Part shown: positions 36,336 through 52,158 of the stretch, one piece after another | How positions within the stretch are numbered: the first letter of the stretch is position 1 | How the letters are laid out: each line of letters opens with the position of its first letter | Sequence record: NC_055708.1 | Direction: 5' to 3' (one strand) | DNA length: 64,000 nt | From: Enterobacteria phage ATK47 | Notes under the pieces: model-generated | Database searches by the model: none | Told to the model about the DNA's origin: nothing | What the model saw: the letters and a program-made list of their open reading frames with translations, nothing else | Made by a program: the position numbers and the translations under genes

Positions 36336-36800
36336 ATGAAATCATACGCTGAATTTTTGACTGAACAATCTAGTTCAGATGTAAAAGCCGCTGCGATTGC
36401 AGCAATTCAAGCAGGTAAATATTCTTACAAAGACGCCTCTGATGAAGAACGTTTCCGTTTTATTAGAGATTTTAAAGCCGAAGGTTTTACTAATGCTAAT
36501 ACTGTTAGCCGAGTTTTTAAAAGCCTAGCTGCATCAGGTGAATTGTTCCAGAAAGCTACAGGTAAAGCACCTGCGCCAAAAACAGACCCTAAAGCAGCTC
36601 AAGAAAAAAATATCGCCAAAGGAATTATTTCTAAGTATGAAGCAATTCTTAAAGAGCTTTTAGTAATCAAAACAGAAGGCCAGAAACTGGCACGAGCACA
36701 TAGCTTCAAAGATAATCCTCACGCTCATAGCCTTGAGTATGTTGAAGATATCCAAAAACTTATTAAAGACCGTATCTGGTCTGCTAAACAAATTAAATAA
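36336..36800 (+). CDS. internal protein-like (CTS leader)
   Basis: 154 aa; N-terminus MKSYAEFLTE matches CTS pattern. Confidence 0.7.
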   Translation: MKSYAEFLTEQSSSDVKAAAIAAIQAGKYSYKDASDEERFRFIRDFKAEGFTNANTVSRVFKSLAASGELFQKATGKAPAPKTDPKAAQEKNIAKGIISKYEAILKELLVIKTEGQKLARAHSFKDNPHAHSLEYVEDIQKLIKDRIWSAKQIK

Positions 36801-36806
36801 TAGAAT

Positions 36807-36835
36807 GCCCCTTCCTTATGGTTGGGGCCTTTTGG
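36807..36835 (+). terminator. rho-independent terminator (repeat copy 2)
   Basis: GCCCCTTCCTTATGGTTGGGGC followed by CTTTTGG. Confidence 0.65.
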
Positions 36836-36866
36836 TATCTAGGGCATAAAAATATTTCATAAAGAT

Positions 36867-36895
36867 GTTTACTTCTTCCCTAGATGTGTTACTAT
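36867..36895 (+). promoter_or_regulatory. T4-type early promoter
   Basis: GTTTAC, 17 nt, TG-t-TACTAT. Confidence 0.6.
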
Positions 36896-36923
36896 AGATT
36901 TATCAACCACAGAGGAAAATATT

Positions 36924-37427
36924 ATGAGTCTTTACACTGAACTGAATAAAAAATCTGAAGAATCTGCTGAAACTATTTTTAAAAACGTGCAAAAGCGTAT
37001 TTTGGAAAAGATGTACGATGCAGCATCTAAAGGTGAAAAATCTTGCCGGTTTCCGATGAGGTGTTCTTCTGATTTATGCGCAAATACTATTGAATGGCTG
37101 GAAAGTGAAGGTCTTACGGTAGAGAAAAACCCGGCGACTTCTATTGACAGTGAATCATATATTAGTATTTCTTGGGATAAATCAAGGGTAGAAGAGAAAG
37201 ATGGTGATTGGGTTGTAGATGTTAAAACTTCTGATGGTGGACGTTCTGTTGAAGTTTCAGCTGTAGTTAAAGGTACCCACGGACAAAGGACTTGGGGTTG
37301 GGGTGGTGAAGAAAAAGAAATTGTTCTTAGTGTGATTGCAAGGTCTACTAGCAATAAAATTGCCCAGAGCATCATCTATGCTGCATGTATCGAAGCTGGA
37401 AAAATTTGCAAAATTAAAAATAAATGA
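36924..37427 (+). CDS. hypothetical protein (167 aa)
   Basis: SD GAGGAAA; ORF. Confidence 0.6.
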   Translation: MSLYTELNKKSEESAETIFKNVQKRILEKMYDAASKGEKSCRFPMRCSSDLCANTIEWLESEGLTVEKNPATSIDSESYISISWDKSRVEEKDGDWVVDVKTSDGGRSVEVSAVVKGTHGQRTWGWGGEEKEIVLSVIARSTSNKIAQSIIYAACIEAGKICKIKNK

Positions 37428-37456
37428 TGTACAAACACCATGGACGGTGTTACTAT
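37427..37456 (+). promoter_or_regulatory. T4-type early promoter (variant -35 ATGTAC)
   Basis: ATGTAC, 18 nt, TG-t-TACTAT; overlaps stop of upstream gene. Confidence 0.5.
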
Positions 37457-37485
37457 AGACCTATCAAATCAAGAGGAGAAACAAA

Positions 37486-37713
37486 ATGGCTAAAGTTAGT
37501 ATTGATGTCGTTGATTATGAATACACAGAAGAAGTTATTCGCAACCGTCACCCTGAAGTTCGTATCGATTCAGTACAAGATTCCAAGTTCTGGACAACTG
37601 AGCTTAATCTGAGTGGTCCTTATGAAGCTGTTAAGAAGTTCATGGTTGAAGAATACTGCGAAGGAATGCACCCGGAAGACGCCAAGTTTTATGTCAATTT
37701 GATTAAAAAATAA
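37486..37713 (+). CDS. hypothetical protein (75 aa)
   Basis: SD GAGGAGA. Confidence 0.6.
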   Translation: MAKVSIDVVDYEYTEEVIRNRHPEVRIDSVQDSKFWTTELNLSGPYEAVKKFMVEEYCEGMHPEDAKFYVNLIKK

Positions 37714-37742
37714 TTTACAAACTCTTGAGAGCAGAGTATAAT
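37713..37742 (+). promoter_or_regulatory. early promoter within palindrome
   Basis: ATTTAC, 18 nt, TATAAT; GAGAGC...GCTCTC inverted repeat flanks the -10. Confidence 0.55.
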
Positions 37743-37783
37743 GCTCTCATTGGATAATAAACCACCAATTGAAAGGTAATAAT

Positions 37784-38377
37784 ATGAACACACTGAAGAA
37801 ACTTGTTGAATTCATCCGCACTAAACTGGGTACTGCTATGGCTAAAAATCTGACTGTCGAAGAACAGTATAACGCAGCTGCAGATAAGTTGATTACCCAA
37901 ATCAAAGAACTAAAAACGGCTTCTGTTAAATCTATTAATGAAGAAAAACGTATTCGCGAACTTGTTAATGAAAAGAACAAGCAAGCCGCTTCTAAGGAAC
38001 GTGAAATTCGTAAGCTCCTGGCTGAAGGACAAGATGTTACCATGCATGCTAAGCTTGGTCTTCTGTATCGTCGAACTGCCGAACAACTTAATACAAAAGC
38101 TGACGGGTATGCCGCTATGCGAATTGAAATTGCTCGTAAGGTGGTTGAACTTGATGATGCTCGTCAGAACCTGGCAATCAAACTCGAATACATTCGTGAA
38201 ACTCGAGCAGCCAATGCCCTTGGTATCTCTACGGCTGATGATGTAATTGAAATCGCTGCACTGACTAAGGTTGATATCGAAGACACTCTGACTCGTGTTG
38301 AAACGTTCAATGGCACTCCAGCTGGTGTCGAAACCACTTCTGCTGATGTACAAGAATATATTAACTCTTTGAAATAA
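37784..38377 (+). CDS. coiled-coil protein (197 aa)
   Basis: ATG 37784 with SD; heptad-rich helical sequence. Confidence 0.6.
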
Positions 38378-38385
38378 AATAATAC

Positions 38386-38407
38386 GGAGGACTCCGGTCC
38401 TCCTTTT
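38386..38407 (+). terminator. rho-independent terminator
   Basis: GGAGGAC-TCCG-GTCCTCC followed by TTTT. Confidence 0.7.
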
Positions 38408-38426
38408 GGATAATAAAGGAGTTAAC

Positions 38427-39029
38427 ATGCGAAACCAAAATAATGATATTGACTCAATGTTCGAAGAGTTCCGAGATAAGGTAAATCCACCTACGTCCTT
38501 AGTTGATTCATTACGATATGTTGCAACCGGACGTAAATGGTACTGGTCGTCTTCTTATGAGACCACCGAGAAAACGGCTAGCCATAGCAGAAAATCTTTA
38601 TTAGCCCCAGGTATTATGATTCATGATATCGGAGCTATTGCTAAACTAGTTGCAGACCATGATATTAGATTCACTGATTTCGTTGCTCCTACGTGGTCTG
38701 TTTGTTGTTTAAACACTGAATGGGAATATATCAGCGAACGCTCTGAAGATTATTATGGTTTTAGAGATAAGCTTCTGAGGTCTAATATGTTTTATATCGA
38801 TACAGAAGTTCTAGTCGATAATAAAAAATATTACTTTACGTTAATCATCGATTCTGAAACTATGTATGAAGGCAAGCCTTTGCTTAAAAGAGTTGATGCT
38901 TTAAGTGCTATTGATGCGCTTTATGAAACTATGGTTGTTAGTCCTAATTTCACTAACAATTTAATCCTTGAGCAATTTATTATGGAATGTAGAGAATATG
39001 TCAAAGCCAACCCTATACATGCCAAGTAA
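38427..39029 (+). CDS. hypothetical protein (200 aa) with C-terminal FIMECR motif
   Basis: ATG 38427 with SD AAGGAG; C-terminus LILEQFIMECREY. Confidence 0.6.
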   Translation: MRNQNNDIDSMFEEFRDKVNPPTSLVDSLRYVATGRKWYWSSSYETTEKTASHSRKSLLAPGIMIHDIGAIAKLVADHDIRFTDFVAPTWSVCCLNTEWEYISERSEDYYGFRDKLLRSNMFYIDTEVLVDNKKYYFTLIIDSETMYEGKPLLKRVDALSAIDALYETMVVSPNFTNNLILEQFIMECREYVKANPIHAK

Positions 39030-39393
39030 GCCCTGGGCGTATGAATACAAGCGTAAATTAATCCCAAATGAAGTACTATTTGGCCCTATTTTAGCTTTAG
39101 CATTTTTAATCTTTATGATTATAGGAGCTGTTTTAGATTCTAGTGAAGTTATATCGTCTGATGCAGCATTTTCATTAATGTTCGTCGCACCACTTATTGT
39201 ACCGTTTTTATTAATGCCTATTAATTGGGCGGGATATTGGCACCAAGGCCGTCATCACAGAGCCCGATTAAGAGAATGGAAAGTTCAGTGCGCAAAAGCC
39301 CAAGCTCAGTATGATGAAGCTGTTAAAAAGTATGAATATGAAGAAGCTATGGAATTCGTTAAGGAAATAAGATGCAAAAGCCTCAACTCTTAA
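38998..39393 (+). CDS. small membrane protein (131 aa), two TM helices
   Basis: Weak RBS, overlaps upstream gene by 32 nt; hydrophobic helices; C-terminus EFVKEIRCK. Confidence 0.5.
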   Translation: MSKPTLYMPSKPWAYEYKRKLIPNEVLFGPILALAFLIFMIIGAVLDSSEVISSDAAFSLMFVAPLIVPFLLMPINWAGYWHQGRHHRARLREWKVQCAKAQAQYDEAVKKYEYEEAMEFVKEIRCKSLNS

Positions 39394-39731
39394 CCGTATG
39401 GCCTTCTCTTGGTGAGAACATTCTAATTTTTATTATGAGTATTGGCATGGGATTTGCCTTTGGATTAGTTGGATTTCTTATTGACGGCGTTGTGTTAGGA
39501 TTTATAGGGAACACTGGTGGATTCACAGACCAATGGCAGGACTTACGGTATACCCAAGCCTTTGCATCCATCGCATCATTTTGTACTGTAGTCTATTTTT
39601 ACTACGATTTTATAAACCACAACAAGAAAAATAAAAAGGTTTACGCTTCTCAAATGATTAGTTATAATGAACTCCTAGCTAGACGTGAAAATGAAACAAT
39701 CGAAAACTTTATTAAGGAATGTAGAAAATGA
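39372..39731 (+). CDS. small membrane protein (119 aa) ending ENFIKECRK
   Basis: SD AAGGAA; two hydrophobic helices; conserved C-terminal tail. Confidence 0.6.
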   Translation: MQKPQLLTVWPSLGENILIFIMSIGMGFAFGLVGFLIDGVVLGFIGNTGGFTDQWQDLRYTQAFASIASFCTVVYFYYDFINHNKKNKKVYASQMISYNELLARRENETIENFIKECRK

Positions 39732-40033
39732 GTAAGATTATTGAAATTAAAGTACCAGAGTTTAATGATGCCAAATCCGCTTCAGATGCAATTTATAAAC
39801 TTCTGAATCAAGCTGAACGTATCGAAGAAGAAGCAACAAAGATCGCAGACCAATATGCCGTATCATTTTCTGTAGGTGATTATGGTAGTGGTCGTACTTA
39901 TTATCCTAAGGGTGAAATCGTATCCCAGTGGATGAAAGATGAAATTGAAAATAATGGCGGCGATGTTAAGCGTGAAGGTAATGGATACGTTATTACTGAA
40001 GGTGCTTGGGTTTCGTCTTCTGCGTTGTGCTAA
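39728..40033 (+). CDS. tandem paralogue A (101 aa), C-terminal GAWVSSSALC
   Basis: SD AAGGAA overlapping previous stop; shares YG-x-G-x-TY and GxWVxSSxxC with next two genes. Confidence 0.65.
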   Translation: MSKIIEIKVPEFNDAKSASDAIYKLLNQAERIEEEATKIADQYAVSFSVGDYGSGRTYYPKGEIVSQWMKDEIENNGGDVKREGNGYVITEGAWVSSSALC

Positions 40034-40042
40034 GGAATCATT

Positions 40043-40315
40043 ATGTCTAAAGAACAAACCGAACTGGCTGAAGCTGTAGCAAAAATCTATGCAGCTATTG
40101 AGGCTGCCAAAGAAATTGCTGATAAACAAAACACAACATTCGACTTGTATCCAGCTTATGGTATGGGTGGAACCTATCATTCACCAGGACATCTTAAAGC
40201 CGATCTTGAACGTTGTACAAAAAACGGTTATGCCGAATGGGCTGACGTTTACCAATACGACTACAACCTGAGCCTCGAAACTGGTGGTTGGGTCGCATCT
40301 TCTCACACTTGCTAA
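40043..40315 (+). CDS. tandem paralogue B (90 aa), C-terminal GGWVASSHTC
   Basis: Junction TGCTAAGGAA-N5-ATG shared with paralogue A. Confidence 0.65.
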   Translation: MSKEQTELAEAVAKIYAAIEAAKEIADKQNTTFDLYPAYGMGGTYHSPGHLKADLERCTKNGYAEWADVYQYDYNLSLETGGWVASSHTC

Positions 40316-40324
40316 GGAAACAAT

Positions 40325-40522
40325 ATGTCTCGTGAATTAGATTGTGCTGTACGTACGGCAGTAGCTGCTCTGGAAAACCTGTTCCAAATTGCAACAGAAG
40401 AACGCGAAGAAGTTACATTATGGATTGAAGATAACGCAGGTCTGAATCTCCAGGACGCGATCTCATTATCCCACAATAGTATCACTGTTCAAGGCTGGGT
40501 ATCATCTAGTTATTCTTGCTAA
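40325..40522 (+). CDS. tandem paralogue C (65 aa), C-terminal QGWVSSSYSC
   Basis: Same junction sequence and C-terminal motif as A and B. Confidence 0.6.
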   Translation: MSRELDCAVRTAVAALENLFQIATEEREEVTLWIEDNAGLNLQDAISLSHNSITVQGWVSSSYSC

Positions 40523-40526
40523 AACA

Positions 40527-40556
40527 GTTTACAACAAGATAGGGCTATGTTATAGT
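40527..40556 (+). promoter_or_regulatory. T4-type early promoter within palindrome
   Basis: GTTTAC, 18 nt, TG-t-TATAGT; ATAGGGCTA...TAGTCCTAT inverted repeat. Confidence 0.6.
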
Positions 40557-40584
40557 AGTCCTATCAAAACAAATGGAGTCCACA

Positions 40585-40824
40585 ATGATTTATTACGAAA
40601 GTATCGGAACCAAAGTGGTTGGTAAAACCATTACTCGTGAAAAGTTTGCAAAGATATTCGATATGCGTTATAAAAAATCTGAACACAAAGGCATCCGATT
40701 CGAAGATGCGCACTGTACAATTTGCCCTTATAATGAAGACATAAACGGTACAATCGTTCCATTGGTAGAGGCTTCACATGATGACCTCTGGGATGAATAT
40801 AATATCGCATGTCGTGAAATTTAA
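40585..40824 (+). CDS. hypothetical protein (79 aa)
   Basis: ATG 40585 preceded by GGAG; His and Cys residues near the C-terminus (possible metal site). Confidence 0.5.
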   Translation: MIYYESIGTKVVGKTITREKFAKIFDMRYKKSEHKGIRFEDAHCTICPYNEDINGTIVPLVEASHDDLWDEYNIACREI

Positions 40825-40852
40825 GTTAATGAATTAATCCGAGGAAAATATT

Positions 40853-41809
40853 ATGATGTTAGTTATTGGTTCTCGTGCACTTCACTATCACGGTCTTATT
40901 GATTCTAGCGCTATTAAAAATAGTGATTGGGACTTTATTGCGGACCAAGGTTCTTGGAATGTATTCAAAAATCAAATGATGGGTGTATATGTTCACCAAG
41001 ATAACCCTGATGTCCAAGTTTTCAAATGCTTCCATAACGGACGCGAAACTCATTTTGAAGCATACATCGTTCCGGCTATCACTAACGTTCGCGAACTAGT
41101 CGGTGAACTCACTCCTGAAGATTTCACGTCTTCTTATGACCTTTTAAAATACGCCAAGAAAAATTTGACTAAAGACCGTTTGAACGGGTTTTACTGGGCA
41201 ACTCCTGAGATATGTCTTGCAATTAAGATGTCTCATCGTTTCAAGAAAAATAATCCATTCTTTTTAAAGACTATGAACCATATTCAGTATCTTCGTGGTA
41301 AAGGTGTTACACTGAACGATGAACTTACTGAAATTATGCTGAAACGCCAGAAAGAAACCTTGAATTATGCTCACCCAGTTCTTGACACTTCTAAAAGTGC
41401 GTTCTTTAAAGATGACATCTATACATATGACCATGATACTATTCATGAAGCCATTGCACTAACAGACCGTCCAGCGTATACATTTTATATGAAAGATGGT
41501 TCTGAAGTCATGACCTCACGCGAGAAGTTCGAATCATTACCAGAAATGGTCAAATTGGCCGGCGTATACGAAGAATCATGTGTACTAGCGTTAGAACGTT
41601 CTCAGATTCCTAATAACTTTGAAATCCATCCACGTGATAGTTTTATGATGGCCCTTGAAAAGGTCTGCACATCAATCACATCAGGATGGTTCCGTGAGTT
41701 CGCTTGGGAAAATTATAGCAAAGTAGTAAGTATGTACCAAAGCTTAGGACACGACGATTACGTCAAGCGTTTCAAACAAAACTTTCATATGGTAAAACCT
41801 TTCAAATAA
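40853..41809 (+). CDS. Pol-beta-fold nucleotidyltransferase-like protein (318 aa)
   Basis: N-terminal VIGSRALHYHG...NSDWDFIAD fits the hG[GS]-x(9-13)-D-x-[DE] NTase signature; rest uncharacterised. Confidence 0.45.
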   Translation: MMLVIGSRALHYHGLIDSSAIKNSDWDFIADQGSWNVFKNQMMGVYVHQDNPDVQVFKCFHNGRETHFEAYIVPAITNVRELVGELTPEDFTSSYDLLKYAKKNLTKDRLNGFYWATPEICLAIKMSHRFKKNNPFFLKTMNHIQYLRGKGVTLNDELTEIMLKRQKETLNYAHPVLDTSKSAFFKDDIYTYDHDTIHEAIALTDRPAYTFYMKDGSEVMTSREKFESLPEMVKLAGVYEESCVLALERSQIPNNFEIHPRDSFMMALEKVCTSITSGWFREFAWENYSKVVSMYQSLGHDDYVKRFKQNFHMVKPFK

Positions 41810-41822
41810 TTTCACAAAACAG

Positions 41823-41851
41823 TTTACAAGGTCTGTAGTTGTTGATACTAT
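41823..41851 (+). promoter_or_regulatory. T4-type early promoter within palindrome
   Basis: GTTTAC, 17 nt, TG-a-TACTAT; GGTCT...AGACC inverted repeat. Confidence 0.6.
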
Positions 41852-41889
41852 AGACCTATCAAAACAAATGAGTGAATGGAGATATAAAA

Positions 41890-42090
41890 ATGACTACTTT
41901 GAATAAACGTTTCGGTAAAGCTAAACCTGGTTGTGCAGCAGAACGTCGTTATGTTTTCGCTCAGTTAGAAGATGTAGAGTATCAGATTAATCAAGTTCAC
42001 ATTACTGGTATCGAGCCTATGTGTGGCCTTGAAGCTCTTCGTGAAGTTCGTGATGGGTATCGTCGTGACATCGAAGAAATGTCAAAATAA
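41890..42090 (+). CDS. hypothetical protein (66 aa)
   Basis: ATG 41890 preceded by GGAGA. Confidence 0.5.
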   Translation: MTTLNKRFGKAKPGCAAERRYVFAQLEDVEYQINQVHITGIEPMCGLEALREVRDGYRRDIEEMSK

Positions 42091-42120
42091 GTGTACAAAC
42101 TGATAGGACTATGTTATAGT
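42091..42120 (+). promoter_or_regulatory. T4-type early promoter within palindrome (variant -35 GTGTAC)
   Basis: GTGTAC, 18 nt, TG-t-TATAGT; ATAGGACTA...TAGTCCTAT inverted repeat. Confidence 0.6.
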
Positions 42121-42148
42121 AGTCCTATTAAAACATGAGGAGAATATT

Positions 42149-42454
42149 ATGAAATTAGGCGAAACCAACCGAATTGGTCTTTTAACAATATTTGTATCAC
42201 TTTTTTACGCAGCTCTTTCTGTTGCAGTATTACAAAAGGCTTACAGTATGGATGGTGTTCCTGGTTTTGTATTCTTATCGCCGTTTTTGCTATTCGTTGG
42301 AGCATTGTTATTATATGCCACGACTAGTTTCGACCATAACGTCTGGGTCAATTATAAATGTAAATTGTCTGAAGAAGAACACGCAGAAGCTCGTAAAAAA
42401 GCTATTGAATCTACCAATCTAGAAAATTTCATTAAAGAATGTCGAGGAAAATAA
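42149..42454 (+). CDS. small membrane protein (101 aa) ending NFIKECRGK
   Basis: SD GAGGAGA; two hydrophobic helices; conserved C-terminal tail. Confidence 0.6.
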   Translation: MKLGETNRIGLLTIFVSLFYAALSVAVLQKAYSMDGVPGFVFLSPFLLFVGALLLYATTSFDHNVWVNYKCKLSEEEHAEARKKAIESTNLENFIKECRGK

Positions 42455-42455
42455 T

Positions 42456-43142
42456 ATGAATAGTTCTAAAGTGTTTAATAGTCAAGCTCGTGCAGTAGGT
42501 GGTTTTGCTCATGCGATTAAAAATGACCAGATTAAAAACGAGCCTATGTTCTTTAATTGCGATTTGAATTTTGCTTTTGATAACGGCGGTCCAATTACTC
42601 GTAGCTTTATCCAAAATCTCCCTGACGATTGGAAAGACTCGGATGTAGTATTTGATTCACGAGTCCATATGCTGATGCCTGGTTGGTATCCTGCTATTCC
42701 TGGTTATCACCATGATGACGTACCACGCCCGGATATTCCGGTTGGTCAACATTTTATTACTGCAGGACAACCTGACTATGACAATCCTCGCTATTTGTCT
42801 GAACATATTCTTGGTCTTGTTAACGCTGATGTGTGTCCTACTCATTTTGCAACAGGAACTGCAGAGTTCAGTCAGATTCCTGATGGCGAACTTATCTATC
42901 GCCAGTGTCACAAAGAAGTCCTCGAAAAAATTGAAAAAGGTGAACTAGAGAAATGGGAAGCTCCAGATCGTACTCTTCTTCAGTTTGATTGGCAAACATG
43001 GCACACTGGTTCTCGTGCAATTAGTAATGGATGGCGTTGGTTCGGACGTGTATCTCGTAATACAGACCGAGTTAAAAAGATTACCAATGAAATTCGTGTC
43101 AATGCTCAAGTTTATCTGGAATTCCCTATGGAAGGCTGGTAA
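42456..43142 (+). CDS. putative 2OG-Fe(II) oxygenase-like protein (228 aa)
   Basis: H85-x-D87 ... H183 ... R198-x-S200 spacing fits the 2OG oxygenase facial triad plus RxS 2OG-binding motif; not verified. Confidence 0.35.
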   Translation: MNSSKVFNSQARAVGGFAHAIKNDQIKNEPMFFNCDLNFAFDNGGPITRSFIQNLPDDWKDSDVVFDSRVHMLMPGWYPAIPGYHHDDVPRPDIPVGQHFITAGQPDYDNPRYLSEHILGLVNADVCPTHFATGTAEFSQIPDGELIYRQCHKEVLEKIEKGELEKWEAPDRTLLQFDWQTWHTGSRAISNGWRWFGRVSRNTDRVKKITNEIRVNAQVYLEFPMEGW

Positions 43143-43633
43143 TGATTAACAAAACATATTGGTCTAATATAGACGATGGCAACGAAGGTATTTCGTACTA
43201 TTCAGTGGATTGGACAGGATGTCCATCCTACTTAGTGAAACGTATTTGCCAAGAATTTAAAATCGACCAGCCAGCAGGTATTATCGTGAACAGATACATT
43301 AATGGATATCAACCTATCGATGAAGTAATACGAACAACTCAAGCTGAGCTTGAAAAGTTTTTCAATAAGTGCCAATGGATAACAGGATGGATTATATTTG
43401 TACCGTCGGTATGGTTTTTCAGTACTAAGGTGAGTTCTTTCGGATTTGTTGATATTATTGCTATCTTATTAGCATCTAGTATCGTAAGTGTTGTTGGTGG
43501 CATCATTGGCGGCGGTACCGCCGCCATCATTATTAATCTTATTAAAAGTAGTTTACAAGAACATAAAGACAAGATAAAAGCCAAGAATAATGAAGTTGAA
43601 CGTTTTATTACCGAATGCAGGAATTTGAGATGA
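43142..43633 (+). CDS. membrane protein (163 aa) ending ERFITECRNLR
   Basis: C-terminal hydrophobic helices and conserved tail; ATGA overlap with neighbours. Confidence 0.6.
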   Translation: MINKTYWSNIDDGNEGISYYSVDWTGCPSYLVKRICQEFKIDQPAGIIVNRYINGYQPIDEVIRTTQAELEKFFNKCQWITGWIIFVPSVWFFSTKVSSFGFVDIIAILLASSIVSVVGGIIGGGTAAIIINLIKSSLQEHKDKIKAKNNEVERFITECRNLR

Positions 43634-43866
43634 GTATAGCAATTTACATTAAATCAGAATCATGTGATAGTTATCTGTACACATATGATAAAGATGTGTC
43701 AGAAGAAAAAATCAAAGACGACCTTAATACGGACCTTGATATGTTCTGTCCTATTGCAGATTACAAACTTGCGGTCTCTAATAGTGAAAGTCCATCTAAA
43801 GAAACGCGCATTGAAGAATTTATGTCTGAATTAATGGCCAAATCATGGGACCGAGATGATGAGTAA
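43630..43866 (+). CDS. hypothetical acidic protein (78 aa)
   Basis: ATG 43630 overlapping previous stop. Confidence 0.55.
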   Translation: MSIAIYIKSESCDSYLYTYDKDVSEEKIKDDLNTDLDMFCPIADYKLAVSNSESPSKETRIEEFMSELMAKSWDRDDE

Positions 43867-44314
43867 GAAAAATAAAGTGAAAGAGCTATCAGCCGGTATT
43901 ATTTTCCTTACCGAAGATAAAGAGTTATTCATGGGGCGTGTAACTGGTTCTCGTCCTAAAGGTGCATTAACTCATCGGTGGGATATTCCTAAAGGCCGTG
44001 TCGAACCTGGCGAATCTCCTATTGAAGCCGCTATTCGTGAATGCGAAGAAGAAACTGGGTTTACACAATATGACCCTGCCTTCCTGAAAGACCTAGGTGA
44101 ACATCATTACTCAGACAATAAGAATATTCATCTGTTCCTATATACCATCCCTGTAGAGCACGAGCAATTCAGAAACAGTGTTTGTAATTCCTATCATACA
44201 TTCCAAGACGGACGACAGATTCCTGAATTTGATGCATTCGCTTTAATTAAACCTTCTCAATGGGAATATGTAATGGGCAAATCGTTATATAAGGTGCTCA
44301 CTACCCTCCTATAA
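43856..44314 (+). CDS. nudE: Nudix hydrolase
   Basis: Nudix box GRVEPGESPIEAAIRECEEETGF; immediately upstream of lysozyme as T4 e.1. Confidence 0.85.
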   Translation: MMSKKNKVKELSAGIIFLTEDKELFMGRVTGSRPKGALTHRWDIPKGRVEPGESPIEAAIRECEEETGFTQYDPAFLKDLGEHHYSDNKNIHLFLYTIPVEHEQFRNSVCNSYHTFQDGRQIPEFDAFALIKPSQWEYVMGKSLYKVLTTLL

Positions 44315-44320
44315 GTAATA

Positions 44321-44348
44321 AATACCTCCTATAAACGTGGGAGGTATT
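44321..44348 (+). promoter_or_regulatory. SD-sequestering hairpin with late-promoter-like element for lysozyme gene
   Basis: AATACCTCC / GGAGGTATT 9-bp stem pairs the SD; AATAAATA (44317-44324) and TATAAACG in the loop region. Confidence 0.6.
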
Positions 44349-44837
44349 ATGAATATATTTGAAATGCTTCGTAATGACGAAGGTCTTAGACTGACTTTAT
44401 ACAAAGACACTGAAGGCTTTTGGACGATTGGCATAGGCCATTTAGTAACAAAGAACCCGTCTTTAGCCGTAGCTAAAGCTGAACTTGACAGAATGATCGG
44501 CCGTAAATGCAACGGTACAATTACCCTTGATGAGGCTGAAAAGCTATTTAATGAAGACGTTGATAAAGCTGTCCGCGGAATCTTGGGTAATGCTAAACTT
44601 AAACCGGTATATGATTCTTTAGATGCAGTTCGTCGGTGTGCATTGGTCAATATGGTCTTCCAAATGGGTGTAGCAGGAGTCGCCGGTTTTACTAATTCTC
44701 TTCGTATGCTTAAACAGAAACGTTGGGATGAAGCGGCAGTAAATCTAGCTCAATCTAAATGGTATCGTCAGACACCTAATCGCGCGAAACGCGTAATCTC
44801 AACATTTAAAACAGGAACTTGGAAAGCGTATATATGA
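44349..44837 (+). CDS. e: lysozyme (endolysin)
   Basis: [31 protein letters not shown]; about 85 percent identical to T4 lysozyme as recalled. Confidence 0.97.
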
Positions 44838-45115
44838 AAACATATAGTGAATTTTTATCAGAATCTATTCTTAACGAAGCTACTGACACATTTGCAACTA
44901 AGCTAGGTGCAGCTTTGGTTGAAGCTGAAAGTCTATTAGCACGTATTTCTGAACTTGCTAGTAAGATAGATACTCGCAAATTTGAACGTACCAGCGATAT
45001 CGCTAAGCTTGAAGCCTTGTTGCGTATGTGCGATAAACCAGAAGAAATCGCTAAGAACGGCTCGCTGATGAAACAACGTCTTGAAAAATATATTTCAGGC
45101 GCTTCAGAAAAATAG
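44834..45115 (+). CDS. internal protein-like (CTS leader)
   Basis: 93 aa from ATG 44834; N-terminus [15 protein letters not shown]. Confidence 0.7.
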
Positions 45116-45116
45116 T

Positions 45117-45146
45117 GTTTACTTCCTCCAAGGGTTTTGATACTAT
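45117..45146 (+). promoter_or_regulatory. T4-type early promoter for denV, spanned by anti-SD hairpin
   Basis: GTTTAC, 18 nt, TG-a-TACTAT; TTCCTCCAAG (45123-45132) is perfect complement of SD region CTTGGAGGAA (45161-45170). Confidence 0.6.
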
Positions 45147-45173
45147 ACATTCATCAACTACTTGGAGGAAATT

Positions 45174-45587
45174 ATGACTCGTATCAATTTAACACTTGTT
45201 TCTGAACTGTCCGACCAACATCTTATGGCTGAGTATCGTGAATTACCACGCGTATTTGGTGCAGTCCGTAAACATGTTCAAAACGGTAAACGTGTAAAGG
45301 ATTTTAAAATCTCTCCAACATTTATCTTAGGCACAGGTCACGTAACATTCTTTTACGACAAACTCGAATTTTTACGTTTACGTCAAATCGAGCTAATCGC
45401 TGAATGTTTGAAACGTGGTTTCAAAATCAAGGACACGACAGTCCAGGATATTTCCGACATCCCTGCCGAATTTCGTAATAATTATGTCCCGTCCGAAGCG
45501 TCCATTGCGATAAGTCAAGCACGCTTAGATGAAAAAATTGCTCAACGTCCGACTTGGTACAAATACTATGGTAAATCAATTTACTAA
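45174..45587 (+). CDS. denV: endonuclease V (pyrimidine dimer DNA glycosylase)
   Basis: [34 protein letters not shown]; near-identical to recalled T4 endo V. Confidence 0.97.
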
Positions 45588-45594
45588 GGAAAAA

Positions 45595-45924
45595 ATGAAA
45601 ACATATCAAGAGTTTATCACTGAAGTTACATTATCTGCGGAACAGAAAGCTGCTATCGAAGAAAGTAAAAATCCCAAAGTAACATATAAAGTAAATAGTA
45701 AAGGCGTTTTTGATGGCTTGGTTCAAGACCCTGAATTGAAAAAAGCTCTTTCTAAAACTAATGCGTACTTTGCTCCTAAATTTAACACAGCCGGTGTACT
45801 TATTGGATTGGATGTATTCAACTCTAAAGGTGTTCTATCTAATGCCTTTGGCTATGCCGCTAACAAAATTACCAAAGCCGCATGGGAATCCAATACCAAA
45901 CAAGCTCAAAAGCCTAGAGTATAA
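45595..45924 (+). CDS. internal protein-like (CTS leader)
   Basis: 109 aa from ATG 45595; N-terminus MKTYQEFITE. Confidence 0.7.
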   Translation: MKTYQEFITEVTLSAEQKAAIEESKNPKVTYKVNSKGVFDGLVQDPELKKALSKTNAYFAPKFNTAGVLIGLDVFNSKGVLSNAFGYAANKITKAAWESNTKQAQKPRV

Positions 45925-46030
45925 TTCTTGTCTAATAAAGGGAAACGCAACCTCTCCTTATGAACGTCGAGTCCTCTGAGTGATGTACCTTTTCCAACCT
46001 GTAATAAGGTCGAGCGCAATGCGGTAATGG

Positions 46031-46060
46031 GTTTACATAGCGAGTCGAAGGACCTAACAT
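46031..46060 (+). promoter_or_regulatory. possible early promoter (weak -10)
   Basis: GTTTAC, 18 nt, TAACAT. Confidence 0.3.
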
Positions 46061-46096
46061 GTGCCACGGAATGGCCCAAACCTTAAGAGAAATAAT

Positions 46097-46636
46097 ATGA
46101 GAACATTTTTAACTGGACCTTATCTATCCCTGATGAATGCTTTTACACACCATTCTGATGCTAGAGTAGAAGAAATTTGTAAGAACGGTTATATCCCACC
46201 ATTTGAAGACGTACTCAAGCAGTACTGTACACTTCGTTTAGACGGCGGCAGACAATCAGGTAAATCAATTGCTGTGACTAACTTTGCTGCTAATTGGCTG
46301 TACGATGGTGGAACAGTTATTATTCTTTCTAATACTTCAGCTTATGCTAAAATTTCTGCTGGCAACATTGAAAAAGAATTTTCTCGTTATTCTAGCGACA
46401 ATATTCGATTCCGTTTATTTACTGATTCTGTCCGTAGTTTTATTGGCAATGAAGGTTCTAAATTCCGTGGATTAACGCTTTCTCGTATTCTGTATATAAT
46501 TGACGAGCCTATTAAAGCTCCTGATATGGATAAGATTTACAATGTCCATATTAAAACAGTACAGTACTGCTGCAAAAGCAAATATTGCATCGGCGGTAAT
46601 TCTCGTCCTCAATTTTTTGTGATTGGAATGCAATGA
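46097..46636 (+). CDS. small P-loop NTPase-like protein (179 aa)
   Basis: Walker A-like GGRQSGKS and Walker B-like ILYIIDEP. Confidence 0.5.
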   Translation: MRTFLTGPYLSLMNAFTHHSDARVEEICKNGYIPPFEDVLKQYCTLRLDGGRQSGKSIAVTNFAANWLYDGGTVIILSNTSAYAKISAGNIEKEFSRYSSDNIRFRLFTDSVRSFIGNEGSKFRGLTLSRILYIIDEPIKAPDMDKIYNVHIKTVQYCCKSKYCIGGNSRPQFFVIGMQ

Positions 46637-46941
46637 TGACCACTATTGAAGTTTTTGAATATTGTTATAACAGCCCAGTATGCAATAAAAGGGCTCTTGT
46701 AGAAAATTATGAGATTTACCATTTTAAACCTAAACGATATCGTTTGACTAAAGGCCCGTTCGCAGGGCAGCAGGTTCTTTGTACTGCTCCTAATGCACGG
46801 TTGATGACTAGTATTCCGCATTTCAAAATGGAATTTATTGATGGGCCATTTAAGGGATTAATCACTCAAAGTTTAATGGCGTTTAATTCCGACCCATTTT
46901 TGATTAAAGAAAAATCTTGGATAAATTTATTTTCTAATTGA
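46633..46941 (+). CDS. hypothetical protein (102 aa)
   Basis: ATGA overlap with upstream P-loop gene. Confidence 0.5.
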   Translation: MMTTIEVFEYCYNSPVCNKRALVENYEIYHFKPKRYRLTKGPFAGQQVLCTAPNARLMTSIPHFKMEFIDGPFKGLITQSLMAFNSDPFLIKEKSWINLFSN

Positions 46942-46947
46942 GGTTAT

Positions 46948-47310
46948 ATGAAAGCATATCAAATTCTTGAAGGTGAACATAAAGGCACTATTTATTTTGA
47001 AGACTGTACTCAAGCCCGGATTATTGTCTCTAAGACTTTTAAAGAAGACGCTATTGTAGATCCAGAAATTTTCTACGGTTTGAATGCTCGTGAAATTGAA
47101 ATTGAACATCAACCTAAAGTTAAAATTGAAGGTGGTCAACACCTGAACGTTAACGTTCTGCGTCGCGAAACTCTGGAAGATGCAGTTAAGCATCCAGAAA
47201 AATATCCGCAGCTGACCATCCGTGTATCCGGTTATGCAGTTCGCTTTAACTCTCTGACTCCGGAACAGCAGCGCGACGTTATCGCTCGTACCTTTACCGA
47301 GAGTCTATAA
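46948..47310 (+). CDS. autonomous glycyl radical cofactor (GrcA/YfiD-like)
   Basis: C-terminal [25 protein letters not shown] glycyl-radical motif. Confidence 0.85.
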
Positions 47311-47534
47311 TGGCTAAATTGATTATAGAAGGGTCTGAAGATGTTTTAAAATGTTTTGCCGCCTGGTTTAGTTGCTCAGGCGAGCAATCATTCATTGAAG
47401 CATTTAGAATGGGTGATATTACTGGAAACTATCCGACAACTGATATCACTGTACGTGGATATGGTATTAATGAGCCTATCCAATTGGTCGAATATGACCT
47501 TGCCACAGATGAGGAAATTCCTTATGTCGATTGA
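47310..47534 (+). CDS. hypothetical protein (74 aa)
   Basis: SD GAGAG; ATGA junction. Confidence 0.5.
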   Translation: MAKLIIEGSEDVLKCFAAWFSCSGEQSFIEAFRMGDITGNYPTTDITVRGYGINEPIQLVEYDLATDEEIPYVD

Positions 47535-47790
47535 AGATATTAAAGGCTACAAGCCACATACCGACGATAAAATCAGTAAAGTGAACGCTATTAAAGATGC
47601 AGAAGTCCGTCTTGGATTGATGTTTGATGCTCTGATTGAAGAAGCATATATCTTAAAAGAAAATGAAACAGAGCAACAAACCAAAGAAGATATGGATGCA
47701 GTGCAGGCTCTTAAGTATGCTAAGCAACATCTAAAAGAAGCTAGTATGTGGGCTTGTCGTGCGGTATTTCAACCAGAGGAAAAATACTAA
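47524..47790 (+). CDS. hypothetical protein (88 aa)
   Basis: ATG 47524 with SD GAGGAAA. Confidence 0.5.
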
Positions 47791-48089
47791 TGGCTCAAAT
47801 CCTATCAGGCTTTGGAACTCATTATGAAGCATCTCGACGCATAACTGAAAGCAATCCTTTTGGCCTTGTTCCGAAGCACAAGAAAATTCAAAGCCTTGAT
47901 GACTTTGAGAATCGCCTATGGGCCCTCTTTAATGAGTACAAGGCATATCTGAAAGAAGACGCTGACGATTGTCTTGAAGAAGATGAGATTGCGTATTACG
48001 AACAACGCCTTGAACAGCTCAAGAACTTCCACCAGGTTCGTGACGAAGTATCTAAAGCAGTTAAAAAGTTAATTCCTTTCAAAGAGTAG
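47790..48089 (+). CDS. hypothetical protein (99 aa)
   Basis: ATG 47790 with SD GAGGAAA. Confidence 0.55.
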
Positions 48090-48117
48090 TTTACTTCTCC
48101 TCTAGTTGTGTTACTAT
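48089..48117 (+). promoter_or_regulatory. T4-type early promoter for regB, spanned by 14-bp anti-SD hairpin
   Basis: GTTTAC, 17 nt, TG-t-TACTAT; TTCTCCTCTAGTTG (48095-48108) is perfect complement of CAACTAGAGGAGAA (48126-48139) containing the SD. Confidence 0.65.
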
Positions 48118-48145
48118 AGACCTGTCAACTAGAGGAGAAATCAAA

Positions 48146-48604
48146 ATGACTATCAATTCAGACGTTTTTATCCGCCGCAATAAACTCCGTCGAATCTTTG
48201 AAACGGAGTTCCGCAAAATAAATGCCAGTATAAAAGATGCTGCAAAGTCTCTTGGACTACCAGGCTTTCATATCAAGTATTCTCAACATCTCTTAGATCG
48301 TGCCATCCAGAGAGAAATAGATGAGAATTACGTTTTTGAATTATTTCGTAAAGTAAAAAATCATGTTAAAGAAGTTGCAGAATTTTTATCAATGCCGGCA
48401 CGTCCAGATGTTGATGAAGATTTTGTCGAAGGTGTAGAATATCGCCCAGGCCGTTTAGAAATAACTGATGGAAATCTTTGGTTAGGACTTACAGTTTGTC
48501 GCGAAAATCCGGCATTCAAAATGAAGACTCTTCAATGCAGAATGGCTATTATTAACAATAAACGACTACCAGGAAAAGCTTCTAAAGCAGTGATTAAAAT
48601 CTAG
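48146..48604 (+). CDS. regB: RegB endoribonuclease
   Basis: MTINSDVFIRRNKLRR...YSQHLLDRAIQREIDE; near-identical to recalled T4 RegB. Confidence 0.95.
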   Translation: MTINSDVFIRRNKLRRIFETEFRKINASIKDAAKSLGLPGFHIKYSQHLLDRAIQREIDENYVFELFRKVKNHVKEVAEFLSMPARPDVDEDFVEGVEYRPGRLEITDGNLWLGLTVCRENPAFKMKTLQCRMAIINNKRLPGKASKAVIKI

Positions 48605-48612
48605 AGGTAAAC

Positions 48613-49155
48613 ATGAGAAAAGCACTACTCGCTGGTCTATTTGCTCTTTCATTATCAGCACATAGCTCCGAGCATACTTTTAGTAATGTCCAACTCGATA
48701 ACTTGAATTATGCTTATCAGTTTGGGGAACAGTTTTCTAAGGATGGAAAATTTAAAACGCATGAAAATATGCATAAGAAAGGACTTGGATACATAATGGC
48801 CGCAATACTATGGCAGGAATCATCTGCTGGTATTAATCTTAAAGATAAGAAAGGTCACCATGCGTATGGAATGTTCCAAAATTATCTACCAACAATGAGG
48901 GCAAGAATTAACCAGCTTGGTTATAATATGACTGATGCCCAAATTAAGAAAATGCTATCTAAGCGGTCTAATTCAACCAGATGGGCTTATATCGAATTTT
49001 CTTATTGGTTAAATATACATAATGGGGATATAAGAAAAGCTATATCCTCATACAATGCGGGATGGAAGACAAGTGCTGGAAGTAAATATGCTTCTGAAGT
49101 CCTAGAAAAGGCTAATTACCTTAAATCAAATAAACTACTGGAAATAAAAGAATGA
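48613..49155 (+). CDS. secreted lytic transglycosylase-like protein (SLT domain)
   Basis: N-terminal signal peptide (LLAGLFALSLSAHS); motifs WQESS, YGMFQ, SYNAGW resembling SLT family E-S / GLMQ / AYNxG. Confidence 0.55.
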   Translation: MRKALLAGLFALSLSAHSSEHTFSNVQLDNLNYAYQFGEQFSKDGKFKTHENMHKKGLGYIMAAILWQESSAGINLKDKKGHHAYGMFQNYLPTMRARINQLGYNMTDAQIKKMLSKRSNSTRWAYIEFSYWLNIHNGDIRKAISSYNAGWKTSAGSKYASEVLEKANYLKSNKLLEIKE

Positions 49156-49499
49156 CCAAAATGTTAGCTTTAATAGTTGGCTTGGTTTCATTTAACGCTC
49201 TTGCTAATACTACATATACTGATGTAACGGAGTATACAAACAGAACGGCGTCTGATTATTGTGGTAAAAGTCAAGAGTGTAAAGTAGATTTTTCACAAAA
49301 ATTGTTATATGCGTATAAAGACGGAGAAAAAGATGGGGCGTCTAGTAGGTTCAAGGCGTCTACCTTAATTAAAAGATACTATAAAAAATGGCAAATATTA
49401 GAATGCTCGGTGGCGGAACCTAAAGATAAGGCAGCATGCAATTCTATGGTGGACCGCCTAGTTGACTCTTATACTAGAGGACTTGCAGCAAGTGATTAA
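49152..49499 (+). CDS. secreted Cys-containing protein (115 aa)
   Basis: Signal peptide MLALIVGLVSFNALA; four Cys in mature part. Confidence 0.55.
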   Translation: MTKMLALIVGLVSFNALANTTYTDVTEYTNRTASDYCGKSQECKVDFSQKLLYAYKDGEKDGASSRFKASTLIKRYYKKWQILECSVAEPKDKAACNSMVDRLVDSYTRGLAASD

Positions 49500-49959
49500 A
49501 AACTATATCAAGGGCGATATTGTCGCCCTGTTTTCTAAAGGTAATAATATTGCTCATGGGTGTAATTGTTTTCATACAATGGGCGCCGGTGTGGCAGGAC
49601 AATTAGCAAAGGCTTATCCAAAAATTCTGGAAGCCGATAAACTTCAAACCGAATTCGGAGACGAGTCTAAACTCGGGACTTATTCGGTTTATGAAAAATA
49701 TTTTAAGACCCATAAAGCTTATTGCTTTAATCTTTATACGCAGTTTGAGCCGGGACCTAATTTTGAGTACTCTGCTTTAATGAATTGTATAATAGAATTA
49801 AATGAATTTGGAAAGAATAAGATAACAAAGCCTGTAATTTATATGCCAAGAATTGGTGCAGGTATTGGTGGTGGAAACTGGGATGTCATCGAAGAGATTT
49901 TAGATACGTATTCCACTAAACTAGAAATTGTGATTGTTGATTGGGAACCGTTATTATGA
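49492..49959 (+). CDS. macro-domain-like protein
   Basis: GDIV...IAHGCNCFHTMGAGVAGQLAKAYP and PRIGAGIGGGNWDVIEEIL resemble macrodomain motifs; start GTG 49492 proposed (ORF track start TTG 49462). Confidence 0.45.
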   Translation: MIKNYIKGDIVALFSKGNNIAHGCNCFHTMGAGVAGQLAKAYPKILEADKLQTEFGDESKLGTYSVYEKYFKTHKAYCFNLYTQFEPGPNFEYSALMNCIIELNEFGKNKITKPVIYMPRIGAGIGGGNWDVIEEILDTYSTKLEIVIVDWEPLL

Positions 49960-50168
49960 ATATACATTATCCACATCCATATGATCCAAAGAATAAGGCA
50001 GTAATTATTCGTCAATGGGAACGCATTTGTCGTACTAAATGTCCAATTAATAGTCCACATGATGTAGATAAAGACTACATCGGAACATTCGTTGAATATA
50101 CCTTTATTGATAAGAAAGGCCGTAAACAACATGTAGAAGAATATTGCTTAAAGGTGACATGGCTATGA
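49956..50168 (+). CDS. hypothetical protein (70 aa)
   Basis: ATG 49956 overlapping previous stop. Confidence 0.5.
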   Translation: MNIHYPHPYDPKNKAVIIRQWERICRTKCPINSPHDVDKDYIGTFVEYTFIDKKGRKQHVEEYCLKVTWL

Positions 50169-50371
50169 GTCAAACAAAAATTCTTACAGGTGCTAAATGC
50201 GAAAAATGCGAATGGCCTGTAGTTTTTGCTTTATGCAATGACGAAATGGCTTGTGATTTTGATTATTGGTGTTACTGTTCGAACAAAGGTTGTAGCAATC
50301 ATAAAGGTGAAGGGTTTTACTCAGGATTTTACCCTTACCCAGATTTCGTTAAAGAAGGTGAACCTAAATGA
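50165..50371 (+). CDS. Cys-rich small protein (68 aa)
   Basis: Nine Cys in CEKCEW...CNDEMACDFDYWCYCSNKGC; SD AAGGTGA. Confidence 0.5.
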   Translation: MSQTKILTGAKCEKCEWPVVFALCNDEMACDFDYWCYCSNKGCSNHKGEGFYSGFYPYPDFVKEGEPK

Positions 50372-50550
50372 AATTGACTAAAGAAGAGAAAACTAAACTG
50401 TTTGAACTTATCCATGACCTATTGGATGAGCAAGCAGCCACCAATGCGTATGATGAATATGCTCCTTTGACGGACGAAGAATATCAAGCATTGTTGGAAT
50501 CATTTGACAGGAAAGAACAAGAACTCATTGACTACGTGAATTCGTTATGA
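50368..50550 (+). CDS. hypothetical acidic protein (60 aa)
   Basis: SD AAGGTGA; ATGA junction. Confidence 0.5.
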   Translation: MKLTKEEKTKLFELIHDLLDEQAATNAYDEYAPLTDEEYQALLESFDRKEQELIDYVNSL

Positions 50551-50732
50551 TTACTCGCCAACAGAAAGAAGAAATAATTTATTTGTCTAATGAAATACGG
50601 TTAGCAGAACAAGCTTATGAATGGGAACATTCATCGTATTTCTCGTCTAAACTGGCAAAACAACTTGCAACACAAGAATTGGAAGATGCTCAAAAAGCAT
50701 TGGATGATTATTTAGAACGAATTACCGAATAA
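50547..50732 (+). CDS. hypothetical protein (61 aa)
   Basis: ATGA junction. Confidence 0.45.
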   Translation: MITRQQKEEIIYLSNEIRLAEQAYEWEHSSYFSSKLAKQLATQELEDAQKALDDYLERITE

Positions 50733-50740
50733 GGACTCTT

Positions 50741-51322
50741 ATGGCTAGTTTAATTTTTACATATGCCGCTATGAACGCTGGTAAGTCTGCTTCATTACTT
50801 ACTGCTGCACATAACTATAAAGAACGTGGCATGGGTGTATTAGTTCTTAAACCGGCTATTGATACTCGTGATTCAAAAGGTGAAATAGTCTCTCGTATTG
50901 GTATTCGTCAGGATGCCAATATAATTACAAAAGACATGGATATCTTTGAATTCTATAAATGGGCTGCAGCACAAAAGGATATTCACTGTGTATTTGTTGA
51001 CGAAGCTCAGTTCTTAACTACTGAAAAGGTGTATCAACTTAGTCGTATTGTTGACGTATACAATGTGCCGGTAATGGCATATGGACTACGAACAGATTTT
51101 AAAGGTAATCTATTTGAAGGTTCTCAAGCATTAATGGCTATTGCCGATAAGCTTGTTGAACTTAAAGGTGTCTGTCATTGCGGTAAAAAGGCCACAATGG
51201 TAGCTAGAGTCACGGAAGACGGACTTCCAATTACAGATGGCAGTCAAATTGAAATTGGTGATACCGATAGATACGTGTCATTATGCCGGAAGCATTGGAA
51301 TGATTTGACAGGGTTGTTATAA
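50741..51322 (+). CDS. tk: thymidine kinase
   Basis: MASLIFTYAAMNAGKSASLL...; near-identical to recalled T4 Tk. Confidence 0.95.
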   Translation: MASLIFTYAAMNAGKSASLLTAAHNYKERGMGVLVLKPAIDTRDSKGEIVSRIGIRQDANIITKDMDIFEFYKWAAAQKDIHCVFVDEAQFLTTEKVYQLSRIVDVYNVPVMAYGLRTDFKGNLFEGSQALMAIADKLVELKGVCHCGKKATMVARVTEDGLPITDGSQIEIGDTDRYVSLCRKHWNDLTGLL

Positions 51323-51913: not shown

Positions 51914-51923
51914 CATTTAACAG

Positions 51924-51952
51924 TTTACTTCTCCTTGAGATGTGTTATAGTA
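51924..51952 (+). promoter_or_regulatory. T4-type early promoter
   Basis: GTTTAC, 17 nt, TG-t-TATAGT; TTCTCCT after -35 complementary to SD AGGAGAA. Confidence 0.6.
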
Positions 51953-51978
51953 GTCCTTACTTACTAGAGGAGAACGTT

Positions 51979-52158
51979 ATGACACGTAAAGAAAAGATTT
52001 CTAAGTTGATGTTTTTGATTGAAGAGTACGCTAATGCGGTATCTGATTGGGAAAATGCTCATGGTTGCGAAGATGGAGACATCGACATTAACAGAGCTAT
52101 GAAAAAGATGGCCGACGCTCACACCGAATTGCAAATGTATGTTAACGAGATTATGTGA
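51979..52158 (+). CDS. hypothetical protein (59 aa)
   Basis: SD GAGGAGA. Confidence 0.5.
   Translation: MTRKEKISKLMFLIEEYANAVSDWENAHGCEDGDIDINRAMKKMADAHTELQMYVNEIM

Follow-up and report, generated by a model that had tools for sequence, protein, structure and literature searches.

A Shine-Dalgarno-masking hairpin inside the early promoter cassette of denV: a candidate transcript-origin-dependent translational switch in T4-like phages

Background

In bacteriophage T4, the genes e, soc, 49 and I-TevI are known to have a sequestered Shine-Dalgarno (SD) sequence, and the block is relieved by a gene-proximal promoter (PMC3014915, PMC2988022). A close comparison for the denV element described below is e. 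As predicted for denV, the SD of e (and also that of soc, 49 and 25/26) is sequestered in a hairpin of upstream-initiated transcripts. The gene-proximal promoter is located in the region of the 5' arm, and its transcripts lack this arm and are translated (PMC3014915). With the e hairpin, lysozyme synthesis in T4 is about 100-fold lower (PMC3014915). Similar hairpins over the ribosome-binding site (RBS), likewise relieved by a proximal promoter, are found at the low-dose nuclease genes I-TevI, I-TevII, I-TevIII, segB and mobE of Aeh1 (PMC2988022). DenV and RegB, whose genes are compared with this group here, are nucleases too.

The denV element differs from these systems in its timing. According to PMC2988022, the RBS-hairpin mechanism is known exclusively from late genes that are part of long polycistronic messages, whereas denV and regB are both early at the level of RNA and of protein. 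The internal promoter of e is a late (gp55) promoter, an arrangement that blocks early translation of a late gene. That of denV, in contrast, is a sigma-70 early promoter in front of an early gene, and the RNAs predicted to be silenced are read-through or late ones. Also unlike e, the denV hairpin has a long loop (28 nt) that holds the -10 element and the predicted transcription start (+1).

A second related group are the promoter-early stem-loop (PeSL) cassettes of T4-type phages, which mediate gene shuffling (PMC2839356, PMC4122927). Like the denV element, a PeSL is a composite module of early promoter, stem-loop, SD and ATG that is repeated in hyperplastic regions and found at recombination junctions. 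The promoter consensus of the T4/PST PeSLs is TTTACW N17 TAYWAT (PMC4122927). In RB49, the stems are located between -35 and -10 or over -10, and the stem-loops reduced the expression of a downstream lacZ gene like a strong terminator (PMC2839356). The published PeSL stems differ from the denV stem in being local and free of the SD; they are read as terminators or attenuators and, for PST/T4, are drawn just upstream of the promoter.

The sequences preceding ipIII, ipII, denV and orf61.9 (regB) in T4 were reportedly described by Valerie et al. in 1986 as capable of forming stable stem-loops. If this is correct, the T4 denV hairpin was already noticed then. In PMC3014915, denV is not mentioned among the translationally sequestered genes.

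Here, a window of 64,000 nt from Enterobacteria phage ATK47 (NC_055708.1) was analyzed around its denV gene. With 100% identity, the region matches Enterobacteria phage ATK48, which is a Mosigvirus and RB69-like member of the T4 subfamily, and is referred to by the latter name below.

Results

Gene order and transcription around denV

The regulated gene, denV (45174-45587, plus strand; phrog_1183, E = 3e-62), encodes endonuclease V, a pyrimidine-dimer glycosylase. Upstream of it on the same strand are nudE (43856-44314), the lysozyme gene e (44349-44837) and, as the immediately preceding cistron, an internal head protein gene (44834-45115; phrog_3499, E = 2e-46). Downstream follows a small gene (45595-45924, plus strand), the product of which begins with an MKTYQEF capsid-targeting-like motif. 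The gene preceding denV varies by phage and can be ipII, e or another internal-protein gene. In an ATGA at 44834-44837, the stop codon of e and the start codon of the internal head protein gene overlap, which suggests that these two genes are translationally coupled.

On the plus strand, no canonical TATAAATA late promoter is present from 32153 to 51318, so that late messages for the internal-protein-like genes flanking denV probably traverse denV. A generic terminator scan found no terminator-like site between e and denV. In T4, denV is classified as early RNA and early protein, as is regB, and its immediate upstream neighbors e, ipIII and ipII are classified as early RNA and late protein (PMC9697503 supplement); RNA therefore probably traverses the T4 region early. 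Within 43500-48500, Rfam gave no match at E <= 1.

The SD-sequestering hairpin of e itself, AATACCTCC/GGAGGTATT, is located at 44321-44348 and has a predicted stability of -14.5 kcal/mol. In the ATK48 GenBank record it is annotated as a 'putative terminator' (ARNold). This label is probably wrong, and it exemplifies how annotation pipelines can mislabel SD hairpins of this kind as terminators.

Hairpin and promoter geometry

The first-pass annotation had read from the sequence that TTCCTCCAAG (45123-45132) is complementary to CTTGGAGGAA (45161-45170) and that both form a perfect 10-bp stem spanning the -10 element. The analysis bears this out: the inverted repeat is perfectly Watson-Crick paired over 10 bp, and its arms are 28 nt apart. 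All elements of the cassette are on the plus strand. The -35 element GTTTAC of a T4-type early (sigma-70) promoter is located at 45117-45122, as judged from the T4/PST PeSL consensus and from its conservation at all T4-like denV loci. The 5' arm, which acts as anti-SD in the predicted fold and is assigned by complementarity and folding, follows directly 3' of GTTTAC and fills the proximal part of the promoter spacer. The hairpin loop encloses the extended -10 element TGa-TACTAT (45138-45146) and the transcription start, which is predicted from promoter geometry 7 nt after the -10 element, at 45153 (+/- 1-2 nt). The 3' arm contains the denV SD; its core GGAGG (45164-45168) ends 5 nt before the denV ATG (45174-45176).

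Relative to the predicted +1, the 5' arm is located at -21 to -30, and the leader starting at +1 comprises about 21 nt without this arm. Because the 5' arm is 21-30 nt upstream of plausible start sites, the denV helix is possible only in RNAs that are initiated further upstream.

The promoter can be written as GTTTAC-N18-TACTAT with a TGn extension or, equivalently, as TTTACT-N17-TACTAT, which fits the PeSL consensus. Since it agrees with the E. coli consensus at only 8 of 12 positions, a generic sigma-70 scan omits it, and the promoter call rests on the T4-type consensus together with its conservation. In the record of Yersinia phage fPS-65, a predicted early promoter is annotated at the corresponding denV site; the T4 reference records contain no promoter features.

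RNA folding and chance expectation

RNA spanning the whole cassette (45105-45190) folds with -19.8 kcal/mol (z = -2.95), and the SD is fully paired. The RNA beginning at the predicted start (45153-45215) reaches -4.6 kcal/mol and is less structured than its shuffled counterparts (z = +1.35). The probability of the SD being unpaired is 0.00 in the long RNA (-100 to +30) compared with 0.3-0.4 in the short RNA. The isolated hairpin has a stability of -18.2 kcal/mol (z = -5.3), and RNAfold adds four further pairs to the helix across one bulge. According to de Smit and van Duin, SD hairpins of such stability are said to cut initiation by orders of magnitude. With regard to stability, the denV hairpin ranges between those of regB (-20.7 kcal/mol) and e in the same phage and is thus more stable than the phage's own e hairpin.

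Dinucleotide shuffling of the 70 nt upstream of denV produced a perfect stem of 10 bp or more with the translation-initiation region (TIR) in 0.26% of the trials. Around 0.3 such stems are therefore expected per approximately 108 gene starts, and the denV stem taken alone is only moderately unusual. Among the 108 putative gene starts in the window it ranks second (10 bp), behind regB (14 bp) and ahead of e (9 bp), while all others have stems of at most 8 bp. Since the e hairpin is the T4 paradigm established by experiment, it provides this ranking with an internal positive control.

In ATK48, the denV stem consists of Watson-Crick pairs only, and sense and antisense strands fold equally well. 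Across relatives, a folding advantage of the sense strand was not significant (Wilcoxon p = 0.13); all large differences favor the sense strand.

Conservation of SD masking in T4-like phages

denV loci were gathered from IMG/VR and from GenBank phages. The SD is masked in the read-through RNA at every T4-like locus examined that has a GTTTAC-type promoter (unpaired probability approximately 0-0.2, with 0.39 in one case), and in the promoter-initiated RNA of such loci it is freed (0.3-0.7). The GTTTAC -35 element is kept at all T4-like denV loci, and at every one examined the masking segment is located upstream of +1. The arms themselves differ between phages: the pair is TCTCCTGTAG/CTACAGGAGA in T4, TCTCCGTTTG/CAAACGGAGA at locus L012, TCTCCTGTG/CACAGGAGA at locus L031 and TCTCCGTGTTGATG/CATCAACATGGAGA in Citrobacter phage Ursula. 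In close relatives of ATK48, the segment from -35 to ATG carries substitutions only in the loop and the distal spacer and none in the arms.

Covariation between the arms was scored on a fitted alignment in which the CTCC and GGAG cores were set manually as anchors; MAFFT, applied to the segment from -35 to ATG, placed the arms out of register. The score is 0.415, compared with 0.154 for shuffles (reached by 0 of 500) and 0.07-0.16 for slid registers, where the sequences are related by descent and the counts are not true probabilities. Each of the five pairs adjoining the invariant CTCC/GGAG core occurs as three to five standard pair types. Similarly, the duplex between promoter and TIR has -16.0 kcal/mol when both come from the same phage and -10.3 kcal/mol in cross-phage combinations (reached by 0 of 5000 permutations, which, given the shared descent of the sequences, is not a true probability either).

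These patterns bear on a possible role at the DNA level. As an operator or a cruciform, the inverted repeat could modulate the promoter, for instance in early-promoter shut-off. The repeat does bracket the -10 element, and the mechanism of early-promoter shut-off is not completely understood (PMC3014915). However, the arms differ among phages while their complementarity is kept, which points to a folded single strand and not to a sequence-specific site in double-stranded DNA. A 28-nt loop disfavors cruciform extrusion, and the U.G wobbles found in relatives pair only in the sense-strand RNA. A DNA-level role is thus considered highly improbable.

A second architecture was found in phages of other genera (X20, phiR1-RT, PM2, EnC07 and others). 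In these phages the 5' arm overlaps the 3' half of the -10 element and extends to +1, as in TATGATGTCTTCC/GGAGGACATCATG, which includes U.G wobbles; the SD is masked. As in the first architecture, the 5' arm is absent from the promoter's own transcript.

The position of the arm relative to the upstream gene is relevant to translational coupling. Under this explanation, denV would stay closed on the polycistronic RNA until a ribosome finishing the upstream internal-protein gene melts the hairpin, and the amount of DenV would follow that of upstream translation. At the loci with the arm in the spacer, a stop codon indeed precedes the 5' arm by 5-10 nt; in the window, the stop codon of the internal head protein gene (45113-45115) does so by 7 nt. 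The mRNA helicase site of the ribosome is located about 11 nt past the first P-site nucleotide. With 7 nt between stop codon and stem, a ribosome pausing at the stop codon would thus reach no further than the first pair or two. In the second architecture, the 5' arm is approximately 25-35 nt past the stop codon and out of reach, yet SD masking is still conserved. Coupling is therefore regarded as improbable.

Complementarity that arose by chance and was inherited by descent without function has in its favor the roughly 0.3 stems expected from shuffling per 108 gene starts. Against it, differing arms keep perfect pairing across genera, and the second architecture reaches the same outcome, so that this explanation is hardly credible. 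Taken as sequence evidence, the compensatory arms and the two architectures support selection for exactly this SD pairing.

Unrelated denV carriers do not show masking of the SD. At the jumbo-phage loci (L026, L028, L032 and L034; e.g. 121Q and K64-1) the SD is unmasked, and a GC-rich terminator hairpin with a T-run is located approximately 60-30 nt before the denV ATG, where it overlaps the TTGAC -35 element of a sigma-70 promoter. This terminator is an alternative insulation of denV from upstream transcription.

With respect to gene annotation, the denV start annotated in IME08 (L087 286-300) is apparently 15 nt upstream of the conserved ATGACTCGT start that is used by all relatives.

Early promoter cassettes elsewhere in the window

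The plus strand of the window contains 16 early-promoter cassettes of the GTTTAC type. A stable hairpin enclosing the -10 element is found in 10 of them (z <= -1.75, in eight cases <= -2.8); the cassette at 51923 is counted among the ten on structural grounds, with a z-score of only -0.53. The SD is captured in three of the 16 cassettes, namely those of denV, of regB and of a 59-aa ORF at 51979. The remaining seven of the ten hairpins are local and leave the SD free (plus strand, starts at 33206, 33561, 33941, 40527, 41822, 52372 and 56536). These seven have an inverted repeat of 11-13 bp with z-scores from -1.75 to -5.5; the 5' arm is located in the spacer and the 3' arm extends from the end of the -10 element to about +4, e.g. 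GATAGGGTA...TACCCTATC. In this layout they resemble PeSL stem-loops. Since seven other early cassettes build a hairpin without the SD, its capture at denV is not forced by lack of space.

In the regB promoter and leader (48089-48148), the SD is masked by a perfect 14-bp stem of TTCTCCTCTAGTTG (48095-48108) and CAACTAGAGGAGAA (48126-48139), with the masking arm in regB's own promoter spacer. T4 regB (L092 575-525, minus strand) has the pair TTTTCCTCTTGAC/GTTAAGAGGAGAA with 13 bp, including two G.U pairs. The predicted regB pairing is conserved with compensation between ATK48 and T4. By eye, the ATK48 regB cassette closely resembles the T4 denV cassette. The third SD-capturing cassette (51923-51981) precedes the 59-aa ORF (phrog_2758). 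Here, TTCTCCT pairs with AGGAGAA, and an alternative pairing involves a segment adjoining the -10 element; the unpaired probability of the SD is 0.01 in read-through RNA compared with 0.48 in promoter-initiated RNA.

The parallel to regB drawn in the first-pass annotation is thus corroborated, as the same SD-capturing design is present at regB of both the window and T4. Its further proposal of a general mechanism has to be narrowed. The structural logic is right where the SD is captured, with the 5' arm upstream of the promoter start and the SD buried, but this applies to three of 16 cassettes only, and seven hairpins leave the SD free. The SD-capturing design is recurrent, not universal.

Upstream of regB, 355 nt lack annotation in the ATK48 record and are filled by an ORF at 47748-48089 (113 aa from a GTG start). 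Its TAG stop codon overlaps the G of the regB -35 element. The ORF may be an unannotated vs.3-like gene.

The regB locus is also informative on whether the helix shields the denV SD from the RegB endoribonuclease. This enzyme cleaves GGAG within early SD sequences and is inhibited by secondary structure (PMC1702504), so that a helix hiding the GGAG could protect long messages that traverse denV, e.g. towards the downstream internal-protein-like gene. The lack of a TATAAATA motif between e and the gene downstream of denV, with late RNA probably crossing denV, would fit this explanation. However, the T4 denV GGAG is resistant to RegB in vivo even on its own, unstructured transcript, which has been attributed to the sequence 3' of GGAG (PMC1702504). 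In ATK48, this 3' context, GGAGGAAATTA, fits the motif GGAGRAYARAA (PMC1702504) only partly, as positions 5, 6, 8 and 11 match and positions 7, 9 and 10 differ. Moreover, regB has the same hairpin and yet its SD is efficiently cut (PMC3014915). In this respect the two genes differ: as part of its autoregulation, RegB also cleaves the SD of its own gene, whereas the SD of T4 denV is resistant. Shielding from RegB is accordingly very improbable as the reason for the denV helix.

Relation to PeSL cassettes

The denV cassette shows hallmarks of PeSLs. It comprises a promoter of the consensus type (TTTACT N17 TACTAT) followed by an SD (GGAGG) and ATG, and a stem-loop with its 5' arm in the promoter spacer. 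It also recurs in the genome and coincides with breakpoints of gene content, as seen from the 16 cassettes, the homology junction at -35 and the variable upstream gene. In contrast to the published PeSLs, the SD itself forms the 3' arm at denV, and the stem lacks a terminator-like U-tract downstream. In terms of sequence features, the denV element is a special version of the PeSL-like promoter stem-loop cassettes.

The hairpin may be a generic PeSL-type stem-loop that serves attenuation or termination, 3'-end stabilization of upstream messages or homology for cassette recombination, with the inclusion of the SD being incidental. Several observations are in line with this. A stable -10-enclosing hairpin is present in 10 of 16 early cassettes and does not touch the SD in seven, similar cassettes occur at T4 ipII and ipIII, and the RB49 stem-loops act on lacZ like a strong terminator, with PeSLs shuffling genes (PMC2839356, PMC4122927). 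ATK48 becomes homologous to T4-type phages precisely from the denV -35 element onwards, and the denV cassette of fPS-65 matches the T4 ipIII cassette. On the other hand, the terminator scan does not report the stem and the U-tract is missing. All T4-like denV loci examined capture the SD, and they do so in two architectures, though hairpins free of the SD exist in the same genome. The recombination and translational roles are also not mutually exclusive. An attenuator or recombination role is plausible for the hairpin class, but it leaves the consistent capture of the SD at denV unexplained, and as the explanation of the denV element it is judged rather unlikely. Since SD-free promoter hairpins are common in the genome, the class as a whole may nevertheless have another primary function.

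As a primary explanation, an intrinsic terminator was down-weighted as well.

In fPS-65, denV follows directly after e, and its denV cassette (L003 599-662) is nearly equal to the T4 ipIII cassette (L094 1600-1517, minus strand). This layout is consistent with a cassette-to-cassette recombination that would have removed ipIII and ipII.

Discussion

The reading favored here, which we consider likely but by no means certain, is that the denV element is a transcript-origin-dependent translational switch inside an early-promoter cassette. RNAs that come from upstream, either as early read-through or as late lysozyme and internal head protein messages, would carry both arms. In such RNAs, a hairpin of about -18 kcal/mol would bury the denV SD, and ribosomes would not start on denV. 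RNA polymerase at the denV sigma-70 early promoter would start about 20 nt downstream of the 5' arm, and the resulting short message, with its ribosome-binding site free and unstructured, would be translated. The synthesis of DenV would thereby depend on its own early promoter, which is active only briefly, and would be shielded from upstream transcription. For this phage, promoter activity, start site, read-through RNAs and the translational block are all inferred. The most direct effect of the element would be to silence denV on read-through and late messages, because the helix can form only in upstream-initiated RNAs and buries the SD there. The T4 omics classification, according to which RNA would cross the region early, is compatible with the switch.

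The principle of such a switch is not new, as it is the textbook T4 mechanism of e, soc, 49 and I-TevI; the denV version uses an early promoter. In common with this class, the denV SD is paired in a stable helix of the upstream-initiated RNA according to folding, and in both architectures the sequence geometry provides a proximal promoter whose transcript lacks the 5' arm. A late internal promoter and a late gene, as in the known members, are not found at denV, a difference that is arguably inessential to the mechanism.

Regarding the purpose, DenV and RegB are both nucleases, and regB has been described as needing tight regulation (PMC3014915), which suggests dose limitation. A broader and much more tentative idea is that promoter-embedded stem-loops are a general early-promoter device of the T-even phages that senses transcript origin, as their folding is possible only in RNAs reading through the promoter. 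The SD-capturing versions at denV, regB and the small ORF would then reveal the purpose of the class: each early cassette would gain translational autonomy, and the synthesis of nucleases in particular would be limited to the brief burst from their own promoter. PeSL stem-loops, so far seen as terminators and recombination sites, would be re-read as RNA-level insulators, and the interchangeability of the two architectures would indicate that the device was re-invented repeatedly.

The naturally occurring compensatory variants and the two architectures constitute a ready-made mutant series for denV. If the switch is real, RBS hairpins relieved by an internal promoter would be extended from late to early genes. 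It would also explain how an early repair nuclease encoded between abundantly transcribed head-protein genes escapes overproduction from read-through and late messages. For at least a subset of PeSL-like promoter stem-loops, the role of which is still debated, a testable function would be available.
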